Assembly: GCA_038217285.1 (NCBI GenBank) | Contig: JBBQPO010000186.1 | Coordinates: forward strand, 1 to 12,147 | Direction of reading: 5' to 3' | Origin: Chthonomonadales bacterium | Lineage (GTDB): Bacteria; Armatimonadota; Chthonomonadetes; Chthonomonadales; Chthonomonadaceae | Length of the DNA stretch: 12,147 bases | Made by a program: the position numbers and the translations under genes | Part shown: positions 329-12,147 of the stretch, piece by piece | Position numbering within the stretch: the first letter of the stretch is position 1 | How the letters are laid out: each line of letters starts with the position of its first letter | The notes under the pieces: model-generated | Databases searched by the model: none | What the model was told of the DNA's origin: nothing | What the model saw: the letters and a program-made list of their open reading frames with translations, nothing else

Positions 329-2335
329 ATGAAATTTCGAGGTCTGGTGACAGTGGGGTTGCTGGCATTGAGTGTGATGGCGCAGGCAGATGGGACGGGG
401 GATAACTCGGTCGCCAGTGTGCGACGGCAGCCGCCGCCCGGAGTAGCGGTCTCCGCCGAGGATCGCGCGGCGCTGCAGACGGGCATCGCCGCGCTCGGTA
501 AAGAGATCGATTCGCTGCGCACGGAGCTGAAGGGCAAGCCCGAGCTGCTGGAACTTCTGCCGGATGTGCAGATCTACTACAATGCGGCGCGGTACGCGCT
601 GACGTACGACGAGTTCTTCAACCCGAACGAAATCAAGACCGCCAAAACGGAGTTGGCGCAGGGCACGGAGCGTGCGACGAACCTGCGGGCGGGTAAGACG
701 CCCTGGACGACACAGACCGGCCCCGTCGCGCGAGGCTATGTCTCGCAGATCGACGGCTCGGTACAGCCCTATGGAATCATCGTCCCGACGACATTCGCCG
801 ACAGTACGAGCCGCAAGCGCCCCCTAGAAATCTGGTTTCACGGCCGGGGCGAGACTCTGAGCGAAGTGAACTTTATCAACGACCGTCAGCGTTCGATGGG
901 GGAGTTCGCTCCGGCGGATACCTTCATGCTGCACCCCTACGGCCGCTACTGCAACCCCAATCGCTTTGCAGGCGAAGTCGATACGTTCGAGGCGATGCTG
1001 CATATTACCAAACACTACCCGGTCGACCTAGACCGCCTGGCGGTGCGCGGGTTCTCGCTGGGGGGGGCCTCCTGCTGGATGTTCGCCACCCACTACTCGG
1101 GCCTCTGGGCCGCCGCAAATCCCGGCGCCGGGTTCTCCGAGACGGCGGACTTCCTGAAAGTCTACCAGAACGAGAGTCTCCAGCCAACCTGGTACGAGAA
1201 GACGCTCTGGCATCTCTATGACAGCACGGACTACGCCCTGAATATCTACAATGTGCCCACGGTCGCCTACTCAGGCGAACTCGATGGACAGCGGCAGGCG
1301 GCGGAGATGATGACCAAGGCCATGGCGGCGGAGGGTCTGACCCTGACGCATGTCATCGGACCAGGAGCCCACCACTTCTATGAGAAGAACGCCAAACTGG
1401 ATGTCGCCGCCCGCGTCGATGCGCTGGTGGCGAAAGGCAACGACCTCGCGCCCGAGAGCATCAAGTTCACGACCTGGACGCTGAAGTACAACACGCTGAA
1501 GTGGCTGACCGTCGATGCGATGGGCCAGGAGTGGCAGCGCGCCCGCGTCGATGCCGACCTCGATACCGCGGGAAATGTCCTTGGTATCAAGACGCAGAAC
1601 ATCAACGCCCTGACCATTAGCCCACCGGCCGATGTCGACTGGGTGCATCTGAAAGCGATCAACGTCGATGGGCAGCATTTCGGCTGGAAATCTGGCCCGG
1701 TCCACTTCCGGAAAATGAACGGCAAATGGGCCACCGCGAAGTCCGCGACCGAAGTCCGACTCGCCAAGCAGCATAACCTGCAGGGGCCGATAGACGACGC
1801 CTTTATGAGCCACTTCATCATGGTGCGTCCGACCGGCACGCCGATGAACCCGAAGGTGGGCGCGTGGGTCGAGGGTGAGATGAAACACGCCGTCGAGCAC
1901 TGGCGGCGTCAGTTCCGGGGCGAGGCCATCATCAAGGACGACAGCGCCATCACTCCCGCCGACATCGCCTCCGGCAATCTCGTGCTCTGGGGCGACCCAT
2001 CGAGCAACAAAGTCCTGGCGAAGATCGCCGCCAGCCTGCCGGTAAAGTGGGATGCGACCGGAGTGCATGTCAACGGCCAGACCTACCCGCCGGACAGCAG
2101 CGTACCGGTCCTGATCTATCCGAATCCGCTCAACCCGAAACACTACATCGTCCTGAACAGCGGCTTCACCTTCCGCGAATACGACTATCTGAACAACGCC
2201 CGCCAGACACCCAAACTGCCGGACTGGGCCGTCGTAGACATCACCGAGCCGCCGAACTCCCGATGGCCCGGCCGCATCGCCGCCGCCGACTTCTTCGGCG
2301 AACACTGGGAACTGACGGCCCCGCACAAGGAATAG
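329..2335 (+). CDS. Secreted alpha/beta-hydrolase (prolyl oligopeptidase / esterase-like serine hydrolase), 668 aa
   Basis: Signal peptide MKFRGLVTVGLLALSVMAQA; oxyanion-type motif WFHGRG; nucleophile elbow GFSLGG; candidate catalytic Asp (GELD) and His (GAHH); purine-rich RBS (GGGAGAG) before the ATG; strong GC3 codon bias. Confidence 0.85.
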   Translation: MKFRGLVTVGLLALSVMAQADGTGDNSVASVRRQPPPGVAVSAEDRAALQTGIAALGKEIDSLRTELKGKPELLELLPDVQIYYNAARYALTYDEFFNPNEIKTAKTELAQGTERATNLRAGKTPWTTQTGPVARGYVSQIDGSVQPYGIIVPTTFADSTSRKRPLEIWFHGRGETLSEVNFINDRQRSMGEFAPADTFMLHPYGRYCNPNRFAGEVDTFEAMLHITKHYPVDLDRLAVRGFSLGGASCWMFATHYSGLWAAANPGAGFSETADFLKVYQNESLQPTWYEKTLWHLYDSTDYALNIYNVPTVAYSGELDGQRQAAEMMTKAMAAEGLTLTHVIGPGAHHFYEKNAKLDVAARVDALVAKGNDLAPESIKFTTWTLKYNTLKWLTVDAMGQEWQRARVDADLDTAGNVLGIKTQNINALTISPPADVDWVHLKAINVDGQHFGWKSGPVHFRKMNGKWATAKSATEVRLAKQHNLQGPIDDAFMSHFIMVRPTGTPMNPKVGAWVEGEMKHAVEHWRRQFRGEAIIKDDSAITPADIASGNLVLWGDPSSNKVLAKIAASLPVKWDATGVHVNGQTYPPDSSVPVLIYPNPLNPKHYIVLNSGFTFREYDYLNNARQTPKLPDWAVVDITEPPNSRWPGRIAAADFFGEHWELTAPHKE

Positions 2336-2467
2336 AGCAGGGAAGGGAATGCCTTGATCAAGGAGAGTTCGGCTTGCCGAGTGAACCTGGCCTTCCCCTT
2401 CCTGCCTTCCTTTCTTCCTATTTCCTGTTCTGCATCCGCATTTCCTGATTTCCTTAGAGGAGTAAGT

Positions 2468-3529
2468 GTGAACGGTAAGATACGGGTCGGGATCATTGGG
2501 GCAGGGTGGTGGGCGGCGCATACGCATGCTCCTGCTCTGAAGGCGACGGGGGATGTGGAGATCGTAGCGGCGTGTCGGCGGTCTCCGGAGCCGTTGCAGG
2601 AGTTCGCGGATCTGGTGGGCGTGCCGCAAACTTTTACGAGCCATGAGGAGATGCTCGATAGGGTGGCGTTGGATGCGGTGGTGGTCTGCTCGCCGCACGC
2701 CATGCATTATGAGCATGTGAAGGCGGCGCTGGAGCGGGGGCTGCCTGTTTTGACCGATAAGCCGCTGAGCATCAAGGTGGCTGAGGGGGAGGCGTTGATC
2801 GCGCTGGCGGCGGCGAAGGGTGTGCCGCTGGCGGTCTTCTTTGGGCACTGCTACGATGCGGCGCACCGCTATGTGGCGCGGGCGATTCGGGAGGGACGCC
2901 TGGGGCGGCTGCTGGATGTCAGCCAGACGGGCTATGCCAATCCGGACGCGCTCGGCTTTTTTGGGAATGCCGAGTTCAAGCCGGATAAGAAAGAGTTTCC
3001 GATTGTGCCCACGCAGTTCCGCGCCGATCCTGTGTTGGGGGGAGGGGGCTATCTGCAGGATGTGGGCAATCATCTGCTCAGCGGCATGCTGATCGGCACC
3101 GGCCTACGTGTCGCGGAGGTGTCGGCCATAATGGACGACCCGGAGCGCGATCTGCGTGCTGTCGTCACGTTCCGCTTTACCAACGGCGCGCTCGGTACAC
3201 TGACGGTCTTTGGGGATCTGCGGCCACCGGTTGAGAACTACTTTGGCACGGGCCGCTTCGCCTACACCGGCGATCTCGGCGCGTTCTGGCGCGACAATGG
3301 CAGTCCACATCTGCGCTTCCAGCGGTGGCGTGAAGAGCCGATCGATGTCGGCACGGAGGAACTTCCGACCCCTACCAACCCCGACGAAAACTTTATCCGC
3401 ACGCTGCAGGGCCGTGCCGAGCTCATCGCCCCGGCCTCCGAGGCGATCGAGTGTGTCCGCGCCGCCTCTGCCGCCTACGAAGCCGCCCGAACCGGCTGCA
3501 AGGTCGTTGTACGTCCCGTGGAAAAATAG
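2468..3529 (+). CDS. Gfo/Idh/MocA family NAD(P)-dependent oxidoreductase, about 353 aa
   Basis: Rossmann start KIRVGIIGAGWWA; DAVVVCSPHAMH; DKP variant of the EKP motif; GGGYLQDVGNH. The start is moved from 2354 to the in-frame GTG at 2468, which follows GAGGAG (2457-2462). Confidence 0.92.
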   Translation: MNGKIRVGIIGAGWWAAHTHAPALKATGDVEIVAACRRSPEPLQEFADLVGVPQTFTSHEEMLDRVALDAVVVCSPHAMHYEHVKAALERGLPVLTDKPLSIKVAEGEALIALAAAKGVPLAVFFGHCYDAAHRYVARAIREGRLGRLLDVSQTGYANPDALGFFGNAEFKPDKKEFPIVPTQFRADPVLGGGGYLQDVGNHLLSGMLIGTGLRVAEVSAIMDDPERDLRAVVTFRFTNGALGTLTVFGDLRPPVENYFGTGRFAYTGDLGAFWRDNGSPHLRFQRWREEPIDVGTEELPTPTNPDENFIRTLQGRAELIAPASEAIECVRAASAAYEAARTGCKVVVRPVEK

Positions 3530-3553
3530 CGCCGCGCGCACCGGAGTTCAGGT

Positions 3554-3661
3554 ATGTCTGTAGGGATAAGGGTCTGGGCATGGCTACGGACGACGTGTGA
3601 GTTGAAGGATCCCAAAACTATGATCGCTAAAATCGTAGATTTCCTGGAGAACAATCCATGA
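3554..3661 (+). pseudogene. 35-aa mini-ORF whose 3' part resembles the C-terminus of a Vsr very-short-patch-repair endonuclease (probable remnant)
   Basis: Translates as MSVGIRVWAWLRTTCELKDPKTMIAKIVDFLENNP*. The segment CELKDP..MIAKIVDFLE resembles the Vsr tail (WECELK....L..I..FL). Its TGA (3659-3661) overlaps the methyltransferase ATG as ATGA, consistent with a coupled vsr-dcm pair. GGAG lies at 3543-3546. Confidence 0.5.
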
Positions 3662-4983
3662 AACGACCAATTGGCATAGATCTCTTTGCAGGCGCTGGAG
3701 GAATGAGCTTAGGCTTCGAACAAGCCGGGTTTGATGTCGCCGCTGCCGTAGAAATCGACCCTGTTCACGCGGCAATACATAAATTTAATTTTCCCAACTG
3801 CACAGTCATCCCAAAGTCGGTTGTCGGTCTGACTGGCGACGAAATTCGCAGGACGGCCAATATCGACGGATGTCGCGTAGACGTTGTATTTGGCGGTGCA
3901 CCATGTCAGGGGTTTTCTCTTATGGGCCAGCGGGCAATCGACGATCCCCGCAATAGCTTAGTAAAAGAGTTTGTTCGTCTGGTACACGAATTGGAAGCCA
4001 GTTATTTTGTCTTCGAAAACGTAAAGGGCCTGACTGTCGGGAAGCATCGGAAGTTCCTCGAAGAGATTATCGAAGCCTTCGAAGGTATCGAATATGATGT
4101 TCGTTTACCTTGGAAAGTGCTGAACGCGGTGGAATACGAAGTACCGCAGGACCGACAACGCCTCATTTTGATAGGTGCAAAGAGGGGCAAGCGACTTCCA
4201 TGTTATCCTAATCCAGTAACAAACGCAGCCGATAAAAGAGTAGACAGCTTATTTGCTGGCCCTTCGTGCCACGATGCCCTCGCGGATCTTCCGGAGGCGG
4301 AAGATTTTCGCGACTTGCTCTATAGTGATGAAGTGGAAGTGAAAAGGTGGGGCAATCCTAGCATTTATGCACAGAAAATGCGGTGCCTCGGCAAAGAGTC
4401 TTGGGGGTTCGGCTATCAGCGCGAATGGAATCCCGAACTTCTGACATGCAGTATGAGAACCGATCATTCGGACATTTCCCGAAGGCGATTTTTGGAGACG
4501 CCGCCAGGAAGCGTCGAGCCAATTTCGCGATTTTTCCGATTGTCGGGCGACGGTGTGTCGAATACACTGCGTGCAGGGACCGACTCGGCACGTGGAGCCT
4601 TCACGAGTCCGCGCCCTATACACTACTCCAAGTCGCGTTGCATTACTGTTCGAGAAATGGCACGTCTTCATAGCTTTCCGGATTGGTTCAGGTTCCATGA
4701 AACGAAATGGCATGGCGCGAGGCAGATAGGGAATGCCGTGCCGCCATATTTAGCTCGTGCAGTCGCAGATAAAATTATCGATGCCCTCGGAGCCGAACCG
4801 GAGCAACCGGGGCAGGTCGTCGAATTAGGCCACACGGAACTATTACGAATGGATATGTCTCAAGCATCACGCTATTGGAACATCGTTGTACCCATTGGGA
4901 AGCGGGATCGCAAGAGCGGCGCACGAAAACGTAAGCAAAAGGATATCGAGACAACAAGACTGATTGAGGCCACCCATGGCTAA
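3658..4983 (+). CDS. dcm: DNA (cytosine-5)-methyltransferase, 441 aa, apparently intact
   Basis: C5-MTase motifs occur in order: I DLFAGAGG, IV GGAPCQGFS (catalytic Cys), VI FENV, VIII PQDRQR, a TRD with NTLRAG, IX ITVREMARLHSFP, X QIGNAVPP. RBS GGAG upstream. Confidence 0.96.
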   Translation: MKRPIGIDLFAGAGGMSLGFEQAGFDVAAAVEIDPVHAAIHKFNFPNCTVIPKSVVGLTGDEIRRTANIDGCRVDVVFGGAPCQGFSLMGQRAIDDPRNSLVKEFVRLVHELEASYFVFENVKGLTVGKHRKFLEEIIEAFEGIEYDVRLPWKVLNAVEYEVPQDRQRLILIGAKRGKRLPCYPNPVTNAADKRVDSLFAGPSCHDALADLPEAEDFRDLLYSDEVEVKRWGNPSIYAQKMRCLGKESWGFGYQREWNPELLTCSMRTDHSDISRRRFLETPPGSVEPISRFFRLSGDGVSNTLRAGTDSARGAFTSPRPIHYSKSRCITVREMARLHSFPDWFRFHETKWHGARQIGNAVPPYLARAVADKIIDALGAEPEQPGQVVELGHTELLRMDMSQASRYWNIVVPIGKRDRKSGARKRKQKDIETTRLIEATHG

Positions 4984-5377
4984 GACTACGAATACCGAGA
5001 ATAGATACCAGGCTTTAGTGAAGAAGATTTTCTCTGATCGCTACAAGATCGGGGCGACCGAAGTAGCCTTTGTACGGGAAGACCTGGAAGCCGCCGCCGC
5101 AAAGTTAGGAATAGCGCTGCCGAAAAATCTGGGCGATGTTATTTACTCGATACGATACAGAACCTCGATGCCGCAGGAAGTGCTTGCGACACAGCCGAAA
5201 GGTATGGAGTGGATCGTGGAAGGAACCGGTCGTGCGCTCTATTCATTTAAGCTCGTCACCATTAACCGAATTGTCCCGAATGCGGCCTTAGTTAAAGTCA
5301 AGATCCCCGACGCAACACCGCAAATAATCAGCGCTTACGCCCTCTCGGACGAACAGGCTCTCCTTGTTGACGTTTAG
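4976..5377 (+). pseudogene. N-terminal half of a putative type II restriction endonuclease, truncated by the foldback element
   Basis: ATG at 4976 follows GAGG and overlaps the MTase stop (ATGGCTAA). LPKNLGDVIYSIRYR and KIPDATP...YALSDEQALL match my recollection of a Dcm-linked endonuclease family that continues about 100 aa further with the nuclease motifs. Here the frame enters the inverted repeat right after DEQALL, and the stop TAG (5375-5377) lies inside the repeat. Confidence 0.7.
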
Positions 5378-5592
5378 ACTATTTTCGCCCGTCCGAAATG
5401 GCGTTCACAGACGATTTGAGATCGGAAACCCTAACTCTAATGAAATGCTATGGATTTATGGCACTCTGGTACAGCGAACGGGCTATACCTAACACGCCAT
5501 AAATTCCTGGCAATACGTTCGCGAAATGCTTTTTGATCTCATTTGCCTTCGATGAGGCCGCACTTGAAGGTTCAATTTAGTCTAAACGTCAA
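5367..5592. mobile_element. 226-bp MITE-like / foldback element with perfect 15-bp terminal inverted repeats
   Basis: TTGACGTTTAGACTA (5367-5381) is the exact reverse complement of TAGTCTAAACGTCAA (5578-5592). Concentric internal pairs: TGAGATC/GATCTCA (5417-5423/5535-5541), ATTTATGGC/GCCATAAAT (5454-5462/5496-5504), GGTACAGC/GCTATACC (5468-5475/5482-5489). No transposase ORF and no flanking direct repeat. Mobility is inferred, not shown. Confidence 0.75.
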
Positions 5593-7237
5593 ACTCAAAG
5601 AGGCGGTCGAAAAGATGCTGCGATTCAGCGAACCCATCTCTATCGAAACCGATCTGCCCCAGCAGCGCGGCGACTACCGGTATCTGCAAAAGTGTCTTTT
5701 GCAGAATGGCGTCTTGCGCCATGGAACGCCGGACGGCTTTATCCTGCGATGCGAGTTCGAGAAAGACACTGCGAAGTTCCAGGCGAAGTTTCCTGCGTTG
5801 GCAGAGATGATATGCGAGATTCGTGCTCTGGACGCGACAGGCAAGATACGCCTCTCAGATTGGGTTCAGAAGTATAGATGCTCGCCTTATGGTCAAGGGC
5901 CTGTCGCCCTAGCGCTTTCTCTCGCCTGTCTTCGTCATCTGTTCCGTGATAGCATCCGCTTCAAGTCGCAGGAAGGCGACCTTGCCGATACGGCAGTTCG
6001 AACATTCGATCAGGTTATGATGCTCATCGATGGAACACTGCCCAATGCATTTCTCAGTTACCGTCCGCTCAGTTCTACCGAGAAGGCGGTCGTAAGCGGT
6101 GTCTACTCGCTCTTCGGCGCTTCCGGTTCAGCCGTGACAAAGGATTATTCGGTTGTTGAAGCGCACACTGCGTTAAAAACATGGTGGGCAGGACTACCTC
6201 CGATTGCCAGGGTACCGAAGCTCTACCCCCAGGAACAGGCTACTCAGAACTTCATTACCGTAATGGAGAAAGTAGCTGGGAAGGATGCGCATGCCTTTAT
6301 CTTCGAGGAGCTGCCGATAGCCTTTGGATTGGACGGGGGCTTAATGGTAACCACGGAGGTCGCAGACACGCTTCAGGCCGAACTTCCCAAAGTGAAAGCG
6401 AGACTGGAAGCCGGACTGGAAGCCTTAGAGGCACGCATTATTCATGGCGTGCGCGATCTGTTTGGAGTTGAGCAGAACACCTACAGCGACATTCTGGATG
6501 GAATCAAACAGTGGTACAACAAGCTGGACAATCAGCAACGCGACTCGTTCACGAAGCAGACAAACGACTCAAAACCGCTGGTTGTGTATCTGAAATCCCT
6601 TTCGGACTTTACACAAACGTTCTTTGTGGAGATTCCGAAAACGCCGGAATATGGCAACAGGCCTGTACGAGATTGGCTTTCTGACAGAGTAAGTGAGTAT
6701 CTGGCTCAACTCAAGAGCGGCAAGGAGTATATCGAGGCTAACCGCATCAAGGTGGAACCTCCTACGCTGGAACCAGAAGGCGACTATGATTGGCCTGAGG
6801 GGGGACAACTGGCGTTTAAAAATAAAGTCAAAATCAAGTTCAAAACGCCGAGCAAGAACGCCAAGATCTACGTCGCAGAAGGCAGCGCCGACCCGACCAA
6901 TCCTGCCGCGGATCGCCATGAGATGAACGGAAATGAGCCTCTCGTAATCGAAGAGAACAAAACGATCCGTTATGCGGCGCAGGACGCGGAAGGAAACTGG
7001 AGTCCCGTGCAGATGTTACATCTCTCCAACGCCAACAAAGAGTTCGTTCCGGCGATCGGTCCATCGAATCTGTATGGACAGCGTACGGTACAGTTCAACT
7101 TACCGACGGATGTCTCCACACTAAAGGTAACCTGCCGTGAGTTGTTCCGCAAGTGCGTTGAATTCGGCATCGTAGATGCGTCTCAGATGGAAACAGCCGT
7201 CCTCGAAGCGCTGCAAGAGGTGATATCCGTCTCATGA
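5593..7237 (+). pseudogene. C-terminal portion of a BrxC-like BREX protein (ATPase domain missing) with a C-terminal Fn3-associated / chitobiase-C-like domain
   Basis: The open frame begins inside the foldback element (TTG 5543, ATG 5552; internal ATG 5615 after GAGGCGG). No Walker A/B motif. Contains the SPYG motif seen in the post-ATPase region of BrxC-type proteins and an Fn3-associated-like segment (KIYVAEGSADPT...IEENKTIRYAAQDAEGNWS). ATGA-coupled to pglZ, in the brxC position. Confidence 0.6.
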
Positions 7238-9600
7238 GCGTTCTCATCACGATAATGCTGGATAAAGACCGGCTTCTGGATGTGCCGAAAGGCGTCGTCT
7301 TGATCGAAAGGGTCGCAGACTACCCACAGGCTTGTCTGGCAGTACGTACGGCCCTGCACAGCCGCAAGCGCATTACCCTTACCGTTCGTCATAAAGCAGT
7401 CGCAACGTGGCTGACCTCTTATGCCCAGGTCTACGGAGATGAGAACGTAAGTATAGCCAGGTATACAGCGCGCGAAGCGTTGGCGGCGAAATGGCAAGTC
7501 TCTCTGCCTGCCGACATATCTGACGCTGATATTATCCAGGCGCGTTTGCTGGATGAGCCTGCGGTTGCACGTGAGGGCCAATCATTTTCAGAGCTTCTCA
7601 TGGCGCACTTCTACAGCCCCCTGTTCAGTTTCCGAACTCTGCCGGTCATGCAATTAGGGGCGTTGCTGGCAGGATACGATGCAGATAAGTGGAAGGCGGC
7701 TTCCAGTCGCCCGCTCGTATCGCGTATCTTGAAAGAGCGACTGAATCAATGGTATGACAGGGCGCAAAACGACGCAGCACGGGCGCTCGTTACAGCGTTC
7801 CGCAACGATCCCCTCGGCCTGCGGAGAGACCTGTGTGCGTTCAAAGTGTTGAAAAGCTATCCTCCGGAAGTCGGGAAGAAGGTGTTGGATGTTAAACTGG
7901 AAGTTTTTCGAAAGGCGAAGGTCGATACGGACGCACTTGATTTAGCCTCTAGCGATCCTCAGTCAGCCACAGAGATAGACTACTATCTGGCGAGCGTGCG
8001 GGGCGACATAAATGGACAAAATGACGTTGAGACCCTTGTGGGGCAAATGAGCGGTTATCTCGACATAGAGTTTCGCTTTATCGAGGCTCTGCTGCGGGAG
8101 CATACCGACTGGATAGCGTTGTCTCTCATCCACCGGATTGAACAGCGTTTCGCCCCCATTTCGTCTCGGGTCGCCAAGCCGCTGGCCGCGCTGCGAAAAC
8201 TCATCCAGCCGCCTTTTCCTGTCCAACCACAGGCCGACTGGGATGCCGATGACTGGCTCCAGTGGGTACAGACCAGCTACATGCCCTACTACGGCTGGCT
8301 GGAGCTTCAGGATAAACAAGACGAGAAGGTAACGGAGTATGCAGTCACGTTCGCCGATTGGTTCTATGAGAATTTTGTCGCCTTGAAGTATGGACAGTAC
8401 AAACGCTTCGCGTTTACCGCGCTTTATCGTGAAAAACCTCGTATCAATACTCAGGATGCTGTCACGCTTGCCCTGATCGTGGACAACTTCAACTATGTGC
8501 ATTTCGAGGACTTGTGCCGCATATTCCAAGCACATGGCATGTCGCTTGCCGCAAGCGAGCCTCTTTTTTCTTTGATACCGACCGCAACCGAAGTCGGAAA
8601 GGCTGCACTGCTCGCTACCAAGGGCGATCTTATCGACCTGCCGACCAACAGTTACCCTGCTCTGGTGGATAAGGAATGGAATCACAGTAGTTCCAATAAA
8701 AAAGCGACCTATCTGGCAAACATCGGCGCGTTGCAGCAACTGTCGGCGCTCAATCATGAGATCTATTTTTTGAACTACCTGCCGATTGATGAGGCGCTCC
8801 ACCAGAACGCGCAGGAGACAGGGCGGCCGCACAGCGAAGTTATCTATGAGCATTTAGGGACGGTAGCAAAAACTGTCGCTGATTTCGCAGGACGTTTCCA
8901 TTTGCAGAAGCGTCTGCAAATCTACGTCCTTTCGGATCATGGCGCGACCCGCATCGCAGAAGCCGCAGTAAATGTACTGGACACGTCGTATTACAAAGGC
9001 ATCGCCGACAAAAATCATCATCGTTATGTCGCCGTCTCCGACGAGAAATTCGCAGATCTCCCACAGGCAGCAGGCCAACAGTGCTATCTAATAGACCGGC
9101 AGAAGTTCAAGACCAACCACAACTATCTTGCGGCACGGCGCTACTATCGCTTCCTGACAACGACCAGCAATTTCTACGTGCATGGAGGACTGACCCCGGA
9201 AGAAGTCGTAGTGCCATTCGCGCGATTCACTTTTGTTCCTGTCATACCGGATGCCCCGACTTACGCTCTGGTCAGCGACCAATTCCGATATTCAGTCAAA
9301 TCGCGTATTCTCATGGAAGTATACAACCCGAACGGCTTTCCCTTGGACAATGTAACGGTGCGGTTGCTGGATGCCGACGCCGAAGAAGTTACCCTGGATA
9401 AGCTCGGCCCGAAAGAGAAGGTCACAGTCGAGTTAACCACAACGTTCCGCAAATCTATCGGTGGTTCCAATACCCGACCCCTCGCAATTAGGGTCAAATA
9501 CAGTTACCAGGGAACAGAGTATTCGGCTCCTGACAAAGAGTTTACGATAACTATGAAAGCCGTCATGGAGGAAAAAGATGACTTTAGCGATATATTCTAG
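7234..9600 (+). CDS. pglZ: BREX PglZ-domain alkaline-phosphatase-superfamily protein, 788 aa
   Basis: Metal/nucleophile motifs LIVDNF, IPTATEVGKAALL, IDEALH, VLSDHG and YVHGGLTPEEVVVP. ATGA overlap with the upstream ORF; GAGGTG RBS; directly followed by brxL. Confidence 0.88.
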   Translation: MSVLITIMLDKDRLLDVPKGVVLIERVADYPQACLAVRTALHSRKRITLTVRHKAVATWLTSYAQVYGDENVSIARYTAREALAAKWQVSLPADISDADIIQARLLDEPAVAREGQSFSELLMAHFYSPLFSFRTLPVMQLGALLAGYDADKWKAASSRPLVSRILKERLNQWYDRAQNDAARALVTAFRNDPLGLRRDLCAFKVLKSYPPEVGKKVLDVKLEVFRKAKVDTDALDLASSDPQSATEIDYYLASVRGDINGQNDVETLVGQMSGYLDIEFRFIEALLREHTDWIALSLIHRIEQRFAPISSRVAKPLAALRKLIQPPFPVQPQADWDADDWLQWVQTSYMPYYGWLELQDKQDEKVTEYAVTFADWFYENFVALKYGQYKRFAFTALYREKPRINTQDAVTLALIVDNFNYVHFEDLCRIFQAHGMSLAASEPLFSLIPTATEVGKAALLATKGDLIDLPTNSYPALVDKEWNHSSSNKKATYLANIGALQQLSALNHEIYFLNYLPIDEALHQNAQETGRPHSEVIYEHLGTVAKTVADFAGRFHLQKRLQIYVLSDHGATRIAEAAVNVLDTSYYKGIADKNHHRYVAVSDEKFADLPQAAGQQCYLIDRQKFKTNHNYLAARRYYRFLTTTSNFYVHGGLTPEEVVVPFARFTFVPVIPDAPTYALVSDQFRYSVKSRILMEVYNPNGFPLDNVTVRLLDADAEEVTLDKLGPKEKVTVELTTTFRKSIGGSNTRPLAIRVKYSYQGTEYSAPDKEFTITMKAVMEEKDDFSDIF

Positions 9601-11026
9601 ATCGGAACGCCTCCCCTTTGAAGAAAAGGCCGTCGAGCATTTTGCCGAGGTCATCATTAACAAATCTCTTATCCATGAGGCTGGCTTTGGCGCACGTGCT
9701 ATCCCTACTTACGTGGGCGAGTGGATTATGTCACGCTATCTCGAAGACGGCGAACTCAGCGACGTTTCCCGCGAAAAAATTGCTCAATTCATTGCCCGTT
9801 TCCTGCCAGCAAAGGGGCAGAAAGACACAGTCAAAGATATCTTGCTCCGTCAGGAAGCGGTCAAATTGCTCGACGATTATAGCGTCACCGTGAACCTGAA
9901 GTCGGGCCAGCGCCAACTCAGAATCCCATTTCTTGACATTAACGACGCAAACTTGACTTCCCTCATTGTGGACCAAAACGCGCTCTTGCTATCGAGTGGA
10001 GTATGGGGAGTGGGCGAACTGTTCTATATTCCGCCCGACGGCTCGGATCGAAAAAAAGGCGAGGTATGGATGCGTGAGTTCCGTCCTTTTCAGGTCGGAA
10101 CGATCGACCTCGAATACTACATTGAGTGCCGCCGGCACTTCACGCTGGACGAGTGGCGTGATCTGCTGGTATCCAGCATGGGTTTCAATCCAGTAATTTA
10201 TACAGATCGCCAGAAAATGTTGTTGATCACGCGAATGCTTCCCTTCGCTGAACCGCGCGTTAACCTAGTAGAACTCGCTCCCAAAGGAACGGGCAAGTCC
10301 TTTGTTTATGACAACCTTTCCCGCTATGCACGTGTTTTGAGCGGCGGCAGGGTGAGCCCTGCGGTTCTGTTTCACAATCTGGCGACGAACGCACCCGGTC
10401 TGGTTACCCGCTATGATGCCATCGTGTTTGACGAGGTCCAGTCTGTTGCCGGAGATACGGCCGGAGAGTTAATCGCAGGTCTAAAAGTATATCTGGAGTC
10501 TGGCCGTTTCTCACGCGGGAACGCAGAAGCGTCAGCGGAGGCCGGACTTGTAATGCTCGGCAATATCAGTATGGACAGCAATCATCAGCCTCTCTATATT
10601 GAACAGAGCCTATTCAAGGAAATTCCGAACTTTTTGCAGGAGACAGCCTTCATAGACCGAATTCATGGGATCATTTCGGGGTGGGAAATGCCTCGCGTTT
10701 CGAAAGAGACGCCTTCACGCAGTCTGGGCTTTAAGGGCGATTTCTTCTCGGAAGTGTTGCATCGCATACGAGGTGAGGTGCGTTACAGCGATTACGTGAA
10801 GACCAACATGCAACTCGACGGGTGTAATGATCTTCGTGACCGCAAAGCCATAGGGCGTCTGGCAACGGCCTATCTCAAACTACTGTTTCCTGACATTAAT
10901 CCGACGCCGGAGGAGTTCCGTATTTATTGTGTAGTGCCTGCGGTGGAACTGCGGCAGCGCGTAAGAGATGAATTACATAAGTTGGATGCTGAGTATTCCT
11001 CCGTGTTCATTCAGGCGCGGTGCTGA
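9578..11026 (+). CDS. brxL: BrxL-family MCM-like AAA+ ATPase lacking the C-terminal Lon protease domain, 482 aa
   Basis: IPTYVGEWI N-terminal motif; NLVELAPKGTGKS (Walker A); IVFDE (Walker B); LKVYLESGRFSRG; AFIDRIHG; RDRKAI; ELRQRVRDEL. GGAGG RBS and a 23-nt overlap with pglZ. Confidence 0.9.
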   Translation: MTLAIYSRSERLPFEEKAVEHFAEVIINKSLIHEAGFGARAIPTYVGEWIMSRYLEDGELSDVSREKIAQFIARFLPAKGQKDTVKDILLRQEAVKLLDDYSVTVNLKSGQRQLRIPFLDINDANLTSLIVDQNALLLSSGVWGVGELFYIPPDGSDRKKGEVWMREFRPFQVGTIDLEYYIECRRHFTLDEWRDLLVSSMGFNPVIYTDRQKMLLITRMLPFAEPRVNLVELAPKGTGKSFVYDNLSRYARVLSGGRVSPAVLFHNLATNAPGLVTRYDAIVFDEVQSVAGDTAGELIAGLKVYLESGRFSRGNAEASAEAGLVMLGNISMDSNHQPLYIEQSLFKEIPNFLQETAFIDRIHGIISGWEMPRVSKETPSRSLGFKGDFFSEVLHRIRGEVRYSDYVKTNMQLDGCNDLRDRKAIGRLATAYLKLLFPDINPTPEEFRIYCVVPAVELRQRVRDELHKLDAEYSSVFIQARC

Positions 11027-11702: not shown

Positions 11703-12147
11703 GACCAAAGCCCGCAAGGCTTTACTGTAGTAAATTTAAGGGCGAGAAGGATCCTCTCTAAGATTATGTCTGCTTCTATGATACCAGATGGCCCCAGCGC
11801 CGAAAACGCTCCTCTCTCTCCAAAGCCGCATTTGACCGAGGCCAAGCCGGTTCGACGCCGCTACACTCGCGAAGAGAAACTGCGCATTCTCCGCCTGGTC
11901 GATGCCTGCGCCGAGCGAGGACAGATCGCCGCCATCCTGCGACGAGAAGGCATTTACTACTCCACTCTCAACGACTTCCGAAAACAACAGCAGCAAGGAC
12001 GTCTGGAAAACAAGACCGAGCGTGCAAAGCTGCACAACCACGACAACGACAATGAACTCGCCCGCTTGCGACGCGAAAACGCACGCCTGCAACACAGGCT
12101 CGAAAAAGCCGAGCTCATCATCGACGTCCAAAAAAAAGTGTCGCACC
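11681..12147 (+). mobile_element. Left part of an IS3-family insertion sequence (left boundary approximate)
   Basis: An AT-richer leader containing TGCGTCTATAATATGTGAGAC precedes an IS3-type orfA. The right end is outside the window, so the IR and target duplication cannot be confirmed. Confidence 0.7.
11766..12147 (+). CDS. IS3-family transposase OrfA (HTH plus leucine zipper), partial at the window end
   Basis: Manual translation from ATG 11766: MSASMIPDGPSAENAPLSPKPHLTEAKPVRRRYTREEKLRILRLVDACAERGQIAAILRREGIYYSTLNDFRKQ...ELARLRRENARLQHRLEKAELIIDVQKKVSH. Shows the HTH_Tnp_1-type pattern and a coiled coil, with an A8G run at 12130-12138. Confidence 0.88.
   Translation, partial: MSASMIPDGPSAENAPLSPKPHLTEAKPVRRRYTREEKLRILRLVDACAERGQIAAILRREGIYYSTLNDFRKQQQQGRLENKTERAKLHNHDNDNELARLRRENARLQHRLEKAELIIDVQKKVSH

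Follow-up and report, generated by a model that had tools for sequence, protein, structure and literature searches.

What joined the first half of a restriction endonuclease gene to the tail of a BREX-like gene in a Chthonomonadales bacterium? The two fragments meet across 226 bp of DNA on the 12,147-bp contig JBBQPO010000186.1, which was analyzed over its whole length and is referred to here as the window. The original prediction, made from the sequence alone, had taken the segment between them (5367-5592) for a mobile palindrome or recombination site welding two broken defense operons. We find that it belongs to a family of miniature inverted-repeat transposable elements (MITEs), present in many genomes of soil bacteria, with the end TTGACGTTTAGACTA(W)(W)TT, a mobile family leaving target duplications of 6 to 7 bp (range, 5 to 8). 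In our judgment this copy is probably also the joint of a deletion that fused a restriction-modification (R-M) remnant to a BREX-like remnant, through either recombination between two copies or an adjacent deletion. The element and its ends are as follows.

5367..5592, no strand assigned: 226-bp MITE-like nonautonomous element, whole copy (blastn against the loci described below; absence of an inner open reading frame [ORF])
5367..5381, plus strand: left terminal inverted repeat TTGACGTTTAGACTA (pairs with the right arm at 15/15 positions; elements at 31 loci of Chloroflexota or Armatimonadota metagenome-assembled genomes [MAGs] end in this 15-mer)
5578..5592, minus strand: right terminal inverted repeat (complement of the left arm)

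The two arms lie 196 nt apart and are complementary at 15/15 positions, as predicted. A perfect nonoverlapping inverted repeat of 15 nt within 300 nt arose in only 1 of 1,500 mononucleotide shuffles of the whole window, and no further copy of the 15-mer was present elsewhere in the 12,147 bp at up to 3 mismatches. No ORF of at least 60 residues lies wholly inside 5367-5592. The arrangement of the neighboring frames was also as described: the nuclease-like frame on the left ends at a TAG (5375-5377) within the left repeat, and the BrxC-like frame on the right (5543-7237) reads out through the right repeat. The flanks, CTCCTTG and ACTCAAA, share no direct repeat (0 bp strictly and 0 bp with 1 nt of slack), again in line with the prediction.

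On the left, the element adjoins what is left of a type II R-M pair.

3658..4983, plus strand: C5 cytosine DNA methyltransferase gene, full length (Pfam DNA_methylase, 1.4e-63, profile positions 4-323 of 324; PADLOC MTase_II, 6.9e-169, profile positions 2-407 of 412)
4976..5366, plus strand: type II restriction endonuclease gene, 5' half, residues 1 to ~130 of ~267 (PADLOC REase_II PDLC03404, 3e-53, profile positions 2-128 of 260)

As in a type II R-M pair, a full-length methylase gene is followed by an overlapping nuclease gene (ORF 4964-5377); unlike such a pair, the nuclease keeps only profile positions 2 to 128 of 260, its frame running on to the TAG inside the element. A search limited to proteins of 241 to 2000 residues returned 671 relatives, and the 120 that were listed measured 257 to 321 residues, most of them 264 to 271. 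Against one of these (P0003, 267 residues), the ORF was identical at 109/133 positions to residues 1 to 133, with homology reaching ORF residue ~134. Conservation extends through YALSDEQALL to nt 5365; the G at 5366 still agrees with the relative's following codon, and 5367 is the first base of the element. When full-length relatives were used in tblastn searches (E ≤ 1), no second piece of the nuclease gene was detected in the window, and no solved structure matched P0003. The pair thus consists of a full-length methyltransferase and a nuclease cut after ~134 of ~267 residues, and the methylase, judged by these alignments, would now be an orphan without a working partner. Loss of the nuclease with retention of the methylase is the tolerated direction of R-M decay.

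On the right, the element adjoins three genes in the order brxC-pglZ-brxL, the first of which is truncated.

5593..7237, plus strand: BrxC/SspC-like ATPase gene, 3' ~40%, ~residues 824-1371 of 1374, the ATPase part gone (alignment to full-length relatives)
7234..9600, plus strand: PglZ-like protein, 788 residues, apparently intact (Pfam PglZ, 2.4e-5, 24.8 bits against a cutoff of 25; PADLOC PglZ, 3.7e-7; NCBIfam BREX_PglZ_4, 7.7e-11, below cutoff)
9578..11026, plus strand: short BrxL, 482 residues, without a Lon protease domain, apparently intact (Pfam BrxL_ATPase, 2.3e-107, and BrxL_N, 9.1e-23; NCBIfam TIGR02688, 456.7 bits against a cutoff of 329.3)

The ORF at 5543-7237 itself matched no family in Pfam, PADLOC or NCBIfam. 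An exhaustive profile-free search found 166 relatives, and of the 150 listed, 30 were 1311 to 1405 residues long with the query aligned to their last ~550 residues. These full-length relatives matched, through their N-terminal halves, the PADLOC models for SspC (down to 1.5e-32) and for the BrxC/PglY ATPase, which upholds the BrxC-like identity given in the original prediction. By this alignment, the right ORF covers the C-terminal ~547 residues of a BrxC/SspC-like ATPase of ~1370. Clear homology sets in at LKEAVEK (nt 5594), a single base separating it from the end of the element at 5592 (a tblastn extension of P0121 by 24 residues into the element, nt 5522-5593, contained 7 identities, one stop and two gaps and was rejected as chance, because the same DNA is conserved among element copies at unrelated sites). 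No other piece of the brxC-like gene was found in the window with full-length relatives in tblastn (E ≤ 1), nor was any PglX-type gene with Pfam or PADLOC. PglZ and BrxL have the lengths of their relatives. What stands to the right of the element is thus a BrxL, a weakly matching PglZ and a BrxC-like gene short of its first ~820 codons, which is not a complete BREX system.

An intact relative of this locus is carried on an Abditibacteriota plasmid (AP024153.1, 1733-14383), where the right fragment has a counterpart with 49.7% identity over 99% of its length in a run of six genes.

Gene 1: Eco57I/PglX- or DrmMI-like methyltransferase, 1119 residues
Gene 2: DUF4007/SspB-like protein, 280 residues
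Gene 3: small AAA_33-like protein, 161 residues
Gene 4: BrxC/SspC-like ATPase, 1371 residues
Gene 5: PglZ, 795 residues
Gene 6: short BrxL, 485 residues

By this yardstick, ~7 kb of the front of the BREX-like operon would be missing from the window. We know of no textbook BREX type that mixes BREX and Ssp-like parts in this way. BREX is reportedly a phage defense composed of BrxC/PglY, PglX, PglZ and BrxL, said to have been described by Goldfarb et al. in 2015. The gene order in the window and the Eco57I/PglX-type methyltransferase that the plasmid relative adds agree with that description. The window departs from it in keeping only the C-terminal 40% of the BrxC-like gene, in having no system methyltransferase and a short BrxL, and in a PglZ that falls below curated cutoffs. 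A further departure is that the full-length ATPase relatives score better with SspC than with BrxC and that AP024153.1 has a DUF4007/SspB-like gene.

To both sides, then, homology to full-length relatives stops or starts within 1 to 2 nt of the element ends. Both flanking genes are broken, as had been claimed, and they are truncated exactly at the ends of the element with no duplication. The original prediction had allowed that it would fall if the element were a single copy without relatives and both flanking ORFs were naturally full length; the full-length relatives of these ORFs are instead ~2 times (nuclease) and 2.4 times (BrxC-like) as long.

The other part of that condition, a single copy without relatives, was addressed by scanning 185,579 genomes, one per species and the source genome not among them, for exact matches to an end pattern extended to 19 nt and composed of the positions at which the two ends of the window's copy agree. 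This gave 32 loci sharing the 19-nt end, 31 of them in Chloroflexota or Armatimonadota MAGs, so that the element is not such a singleton.

Chthonomonadaceae (Armatimonadota): 10 loci, from 5 MAGs
Chloroflexia: 11 loci
Ktedonobacteria: 8 loci, including Dictyobacter
Other Chloroflexota: 2 loci
Cloacimonadota: 1 locus (L016)

The L016 match overlaps the start of a kinase ORF and is probably due to chance. Of these loci, five were in one MAG and two in each of six others; the window itself has one copy. An inverted second end was present 90 to 257 bp away at 23/32 loci (21 at up to 3 mismatches, L012 and L028 at 4). At four others (L007, L019, L020 and L030) the contig end was reached inside or just beyond the element, at three (L002, L024 and L032) the copy broke off part-way, and L009 had no recognizable partner end. 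The copies at L002 and L024 (both around 2001-2170) adjoin unrelated genes; the first stops after ~75 nt and the second at the 5' arm of the central hairpin described below. Truncation or rearrangement is thus no rarity in the family. When the whole window was compared with the 32 loci by blastn, matches were confined to 5367-5592 and stopped exactly at both ends. Identity to full-length Chthonomonadaceae copies was 76% over 228 nt (L006) and 75% and 74% over 227 nt (L017 and L029, respectively), and the match to L019 reached 90% over 96 nt, up to the end of that contig. On these matches, too, the source organism is probably related to Chthonomonadaceae. No match to 5340-5620 was found by blastn in 72,556 plasmids.

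Mobility of the family was evident from its target sites. Exact direct repeats of 5 to 8 bp, mostly 6 or 7, flank 15/24 element intervals other than that of the window, compared with 3/506 mismatched flank pairings that reach even 5 bp. Since one site is counted twice, in two MAGs (L017 and L029), these represent 14 independent duplication sites. At L018 and L021, identical 248-bp copies on two contigs of one MAG are flanked by different duplications (TTATGA and TTCAAA), which argues for recent movement. The same ends enclose at least four types of unrelated interior (~90, 118-122, 170-182 and 225-257 bp, the window copy being of the long type), as would be expected if one transposase recognizes the ends. 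The search for relatives, ends and duplications thus confirmed the predicted nonautonomous mobile element: across the family the inverted ends are conserved and target sites are duplicated, and several related MAGs contain more than one copy. The accompanying view that it was something other than a simple MITE was not borne out, the 15-nt ends being common to subfamilies with unrelated interiors.

The transposase itself was not found. The search for a transposase-carrying element with the same ends, which the original prediction had proposed, covered the 59 larger ORFs of the 32 loci (14 plus 45, by Pfam) and gave no DDE transposase inside the elements; with exact 19-nt matches only, 2 kb of flank and insertion sequences (ISs) often absent from MAGs, this is a weak negative. 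The only Pfam matches to mobile DNA lay outside the elements, a YhgA-like Transposase_31 ~340 bp from that of L008 and a serine recombinase abutting that of L022. The family is therefore short and noncoding, with conserved terminal inverted repeats and target duplications, and without a parent IS among these loci. It appears to be undescribed so far. The literature searched contained no occurrence of 12-mers of the end sequence and nothing on MITEs of Ktedonobacter. Among the matches listed for a 10-mer from the end there were only human or viral studies without relation to it, those listed for MITEs of Armatimonadetes included no such elements, and the entries for MITEs and terminal inverted repeats in Chloroflexi dealt with repetitive extragenic palindromes (REPs) and diversity-generating retroelements.

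These data bear on whether the repeats could be a recombination or regulatory site, such as a recombinase target or an operator, or simply a chance palindrome between naturally short genes. The conservation of the central hairpin with compensatory changes, the lack of a transposase and the abutment of the L022 copy on a large serine recombinase gene would all be at home in such an account. It is nevertheless hardly credible and largely refuted by the variable-sequence target duplications at 14 independent sites, the identical copies at two sites of one MAG, the ~2- and 2.4-fold greater length of the full-length relatives, and the occurrence of a 15-nt repeat in only 1/1500 shuffles.

Several copies at other loci were found in particular surroundings. 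In a Chloroflexia MAG (L018, 629-3983), the 248-bp copy with the TTATGA duplication lies between a D12 adenine methyltransferase gene and an AlwI-type endonuclease gene, making it another copy inside an R-M pair. In a Chloroflexia MAG (L032, 1690-4018), a copy with one end and the central hairpin, the other end gone, immediately precedes a full-length brxL and thus provides a second link to a BREX gene; the BrxL there carries a Lon_C domain, unlike the short BrxL of the window, and a 395-residue ORF upstream had no Pfam match. The L022 copy (2001-3996) is 119 bp long with a TGAAAG duplication and abuts the start of the large serine recombinase gene. The insertion sites of L001, L004, L005, L017/L029 and the window are in or beside CTCCTT/AAGGAG-like sequence, resembling ribosome-binding sites, and most duplications are A+T rich. 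These sites may reflect target preference or survivorship near gene starts.

Next to a family that duplicates its target, the joint in the window stands out, with perfect ends, no duplication and a different truncated gene on each side. Ordinary insertion cannot produce such a joint. One way around this is to suppose that the element transposed into a preexisting joint of two truncated genes and had no part in the deletion. The family is mobile and defense islands are often rearranged, both of which would accommodate such a history. A 6- to 7-bp duplication would then be expected and a 0-bp match is seen, decay of the duplication being unlikely because the 15-nt ends are still perfect; moreover, homology on each side breaks off no more than 1 to 2 nt from the element. 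We therefore regard insertion into an older joint as very improbable.

We favor instead a deletion in which the element took part. A transposase acting in trans would move the family and leave the 6- to 7-bp duplication (range, 5 to 8). By one route (a), two copies inserted in the same orientation into the nuclease gene and the brxC-like gene, respectively, would have recombined; by another (b), a single copy would have undergone a transposase-mediated adjacent deletion. Either would leave one element and no target duplication, with everything between lost. What was lost would be the rest of the nuclease gene together with the upstream part of the BREX-like operon. If AP024153.1 is a guide, that part held genes for a PglX-type methyltransferase, a DUF4007/SspB-like protein and a small protein, along with the ATPase portion of brxC. 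Left behind would be a methylase without its nuclease and a remnant of the BREX-like system, probably inactive. Neither fragment has lost its reading frame, and pglZ and brxL retain their full length, so the event was probably recent. Adjacent deletion and recombination between repeated elements are textbook consequences of ISs and MITEs, and the window resembles them in having one element at the joint, flanks from different sites, no duplication and genes cut at the ends. It differs from the textbook cases in that the event is deduced from one contig and the enzyme at work could be RecA or a transposase. Of the two mechanisms originally put forward, both fit the absent duplication and yield the same product; that a deletion occurred in the cell and that function was lost, we infer from this one contig.

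Several observations weigh against this reading. Nine of the 24 other element intervals are likewise without a clear duplication, so the missing duplication alone is weak evidence of rearrangement, and no autonomous element with these ends was found in the 32 loci. Six distant relatives of the right ORF (P0128, P0150, P0152, P0160, P0166 and P0177) are C-terminal-module proteins of 543 to 589 residues whose Met start lies 0 to 35 residues from the breakpoint. They suggest a natural domain boundary and possibly split ATPase forms, in which case the ancestral gene may already have been split, with no more than its first codons lost here; the closest relatives of the right ORF (46-60% identity) are fused or longer, and a preceding ATPase gene is absent from the window regardless. 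Lastly, the joint rests on a single contig, the window being that contig in its entirety and the only record of the truncated ORF.

This last point raises a minority possibility to be taken seriously, namely, that the joint is an assembly misjoin in which near-identical copies in the nuclease and brxC-like genes were collapsed, the genes having been disrupted by insertions with neither deletion nor fusion. Such a product would be indistinguishable from the observed one, in which the two genes are cut at the element ends and a duplication is missing. An IS3-type gene lies at the contig end, as is typical of breaks at repeats, and at the four loci in related MAGs where the contig edge falls in or just past the element, such repeats evidently disturb assemblies. 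At those same loci, though, the assembly broke, and assemblers more often break than join at such repeats; a misjoin also requires two independent insertions in coding sequence, whereas the copies inspected elsewhere are mostly intergenic. The G+C content, alike on both sides of the element at 0.50 to 0.53, is neutral in this respect. Either way, whether by deletion or as distorted by a misjoin, both defense genes were disrupted by the element.

Beyond the joint, the symmetry of the element was examined, as it had been described as one decayed palindrome with a common center. The three inner pairs on which this rested were all located as claimed, centered at about 5479: a 7/7 pair, TGAGATC (5417-5423 with 5535-5541); a 9/9 pair, ATTTATGGC (5454-5462 with 5496-5504); and a 7/8 pair (5468-5475 with 5482-5489) enclosing the loop GAACGG (5476-5481). 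Palindromy was then tested on the interior without the 15-nt ends, unless the whole element is stated, and the evidence depended on the test, giving a mixed picture. Ungapped self-complementarity was 31/98 positions, equaled by 8.7% of 5,000 shuffles (P = 0.087, not significant), and folding as DNA gave a z-score of -1.17, with 23/200 shuffles folding equally well (also not significant). A gapped alignment of the left half against the reverse complement of the right half yielded z = 4.2 (100 shuffles). The fold of the whole element reached z = -4.24 (0/200 shuffles), owing mostly to the terminal stem.

Part of the symmetry belongs to a conserved structure at the center of the long subfamily.

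5452..5506, plus strand: central stem-loop of the long subfamily (RNAalifold consensus of 14 copies; also present in the window copy's own fold)

RNAalifold on the 14 long-type copies (13 distinct, from both phyla) gave a central stem-loop of 18 pairs. In the window copy, which is among the more degraded of the long type, 14 of these are Watson-Crick, 1 is G-T, 1 is A-C and 2 are other mismatches. Over all copies, 91.0% of hairpin cells were in standard pairs (shuffled mean, 79.8%), 27 cells had changed on both sides (shuffled mean, 10.5) and the covariation score was 0.371 (shuffled mean, 0.176), none of which was reached in 500 shuffles. The number of pairs with a change on both sides, 8, was reached by 53/500. 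When the 3' partners were shifted by 1 to 3 columns as a control, pairing dropped to 29 to 38% of cells. The check for covariation among copies that the original prediction had called for was thus positive, and the single decayed palindrome stood only in part: the element is partly symmetric, with a central hairpin kept in the long subfamily via compensatory changes, while the remaining interior is weakly symmetric. On the aligned strand, G-T mispairs outnumbered A-C mispairs (18 versus 7) in copies that are not independent, a weak hint of a strand-specific single-stranded form.

What keeps the hairpin is a matter for speculation. We would attach only a low probability to the proposal that the long subfamily carries a functional single-stranded DNA or RNA hairpin, and so is more than a passive internal-deletion derivative, and that its transposase is of a kind not yet linked to such ends, a new kind being proposed because none was seen in the 32 loci. 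The hairpin might serve transposition or function as a small regulatory RNA. Equally simple is that its palindromy was kept by template switching, which can correct near-palindromes. A sigma-54 promoter in the hairpin was rejected by eye, its GG/GC positions varying among copies. A scan of 5200-5800 returned 0 promoters and 0 terminators, giving no support for a sigma-70 promoter or terminator supplied by the element, and the best Rfam match of the element was mir-558 at chance level (E = 0.33).

We next compared the family with mobile repeats already named. Bacterial MITEs include the Correia elements of Neisseria, RUP of Streptococcus pneumoniae, ERIC of enterobacteria and Nezha of cyanobacteria. 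Like them, the present family is short (90 to 257 bp) and noncoding, has terminal inverted repeats and target duplications and occurs in several copies per genome in related MAGs; it is also partly palindromic, foldable as a long hairpin, usually intergenic and able to mediate rearrangements. Unlike them, it has a different end sequence, the same 19-nt end in two phyla, a long-subfamily hairpin kept by compensatory changes and no known parent IS. Correia elements duplicate TA and have their own ~26-bp ends, and from these traits the family differs in its 5- to 8-bp duplications of varied sequence and in its ends. Palindromic elements derived from IS200/IS605 and REPs have no terminal inverted repeats, make no duplication and carry subterminal hairpins, unlike the present family with its inverted ends and duplications. 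The element is not a member of any named family that could be tested.

The remainder of the window provides the setting of the joint.

329-3529: high-G+C part with peptidase S9-like and GFO/IDH/MocA genes
1271-3073, minus strand: 600-residue ORF antisense to two high-G+C housekeeping genes, without a Pfam match
11766-12146: IS3-family OrfA-like gene (HTH_Tnp_1), running off the contig end, its ends unrelated to the 15-mer

The antisense ORF is most likely a spurious open frame. The G+C content drops from ~0.63 to ~0.50 near 3600 (~3450-3750), and the defense genes therefore lie in an island of foreign composition.

If our reading is right, the locus would be a base-exact example of a tiny mobile repeat removing, in one step, a nuclease and the front of a BREX-like operon and leaving behind an orphan methylase and an apparently intact PglZ-BrxL pair. 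The defense islands of little-studied soil phyla probably turn over by such events. The new family, with one end sequence, 6- to 7-bp duplications and at least four interior types, is common to Chloroflexota and Armatimonadota and should help to annotate these genomes, to account for contig breaks in their MAGs and to track down the transposase. Of all the features described, only the covarying central hairpin could open up something new.

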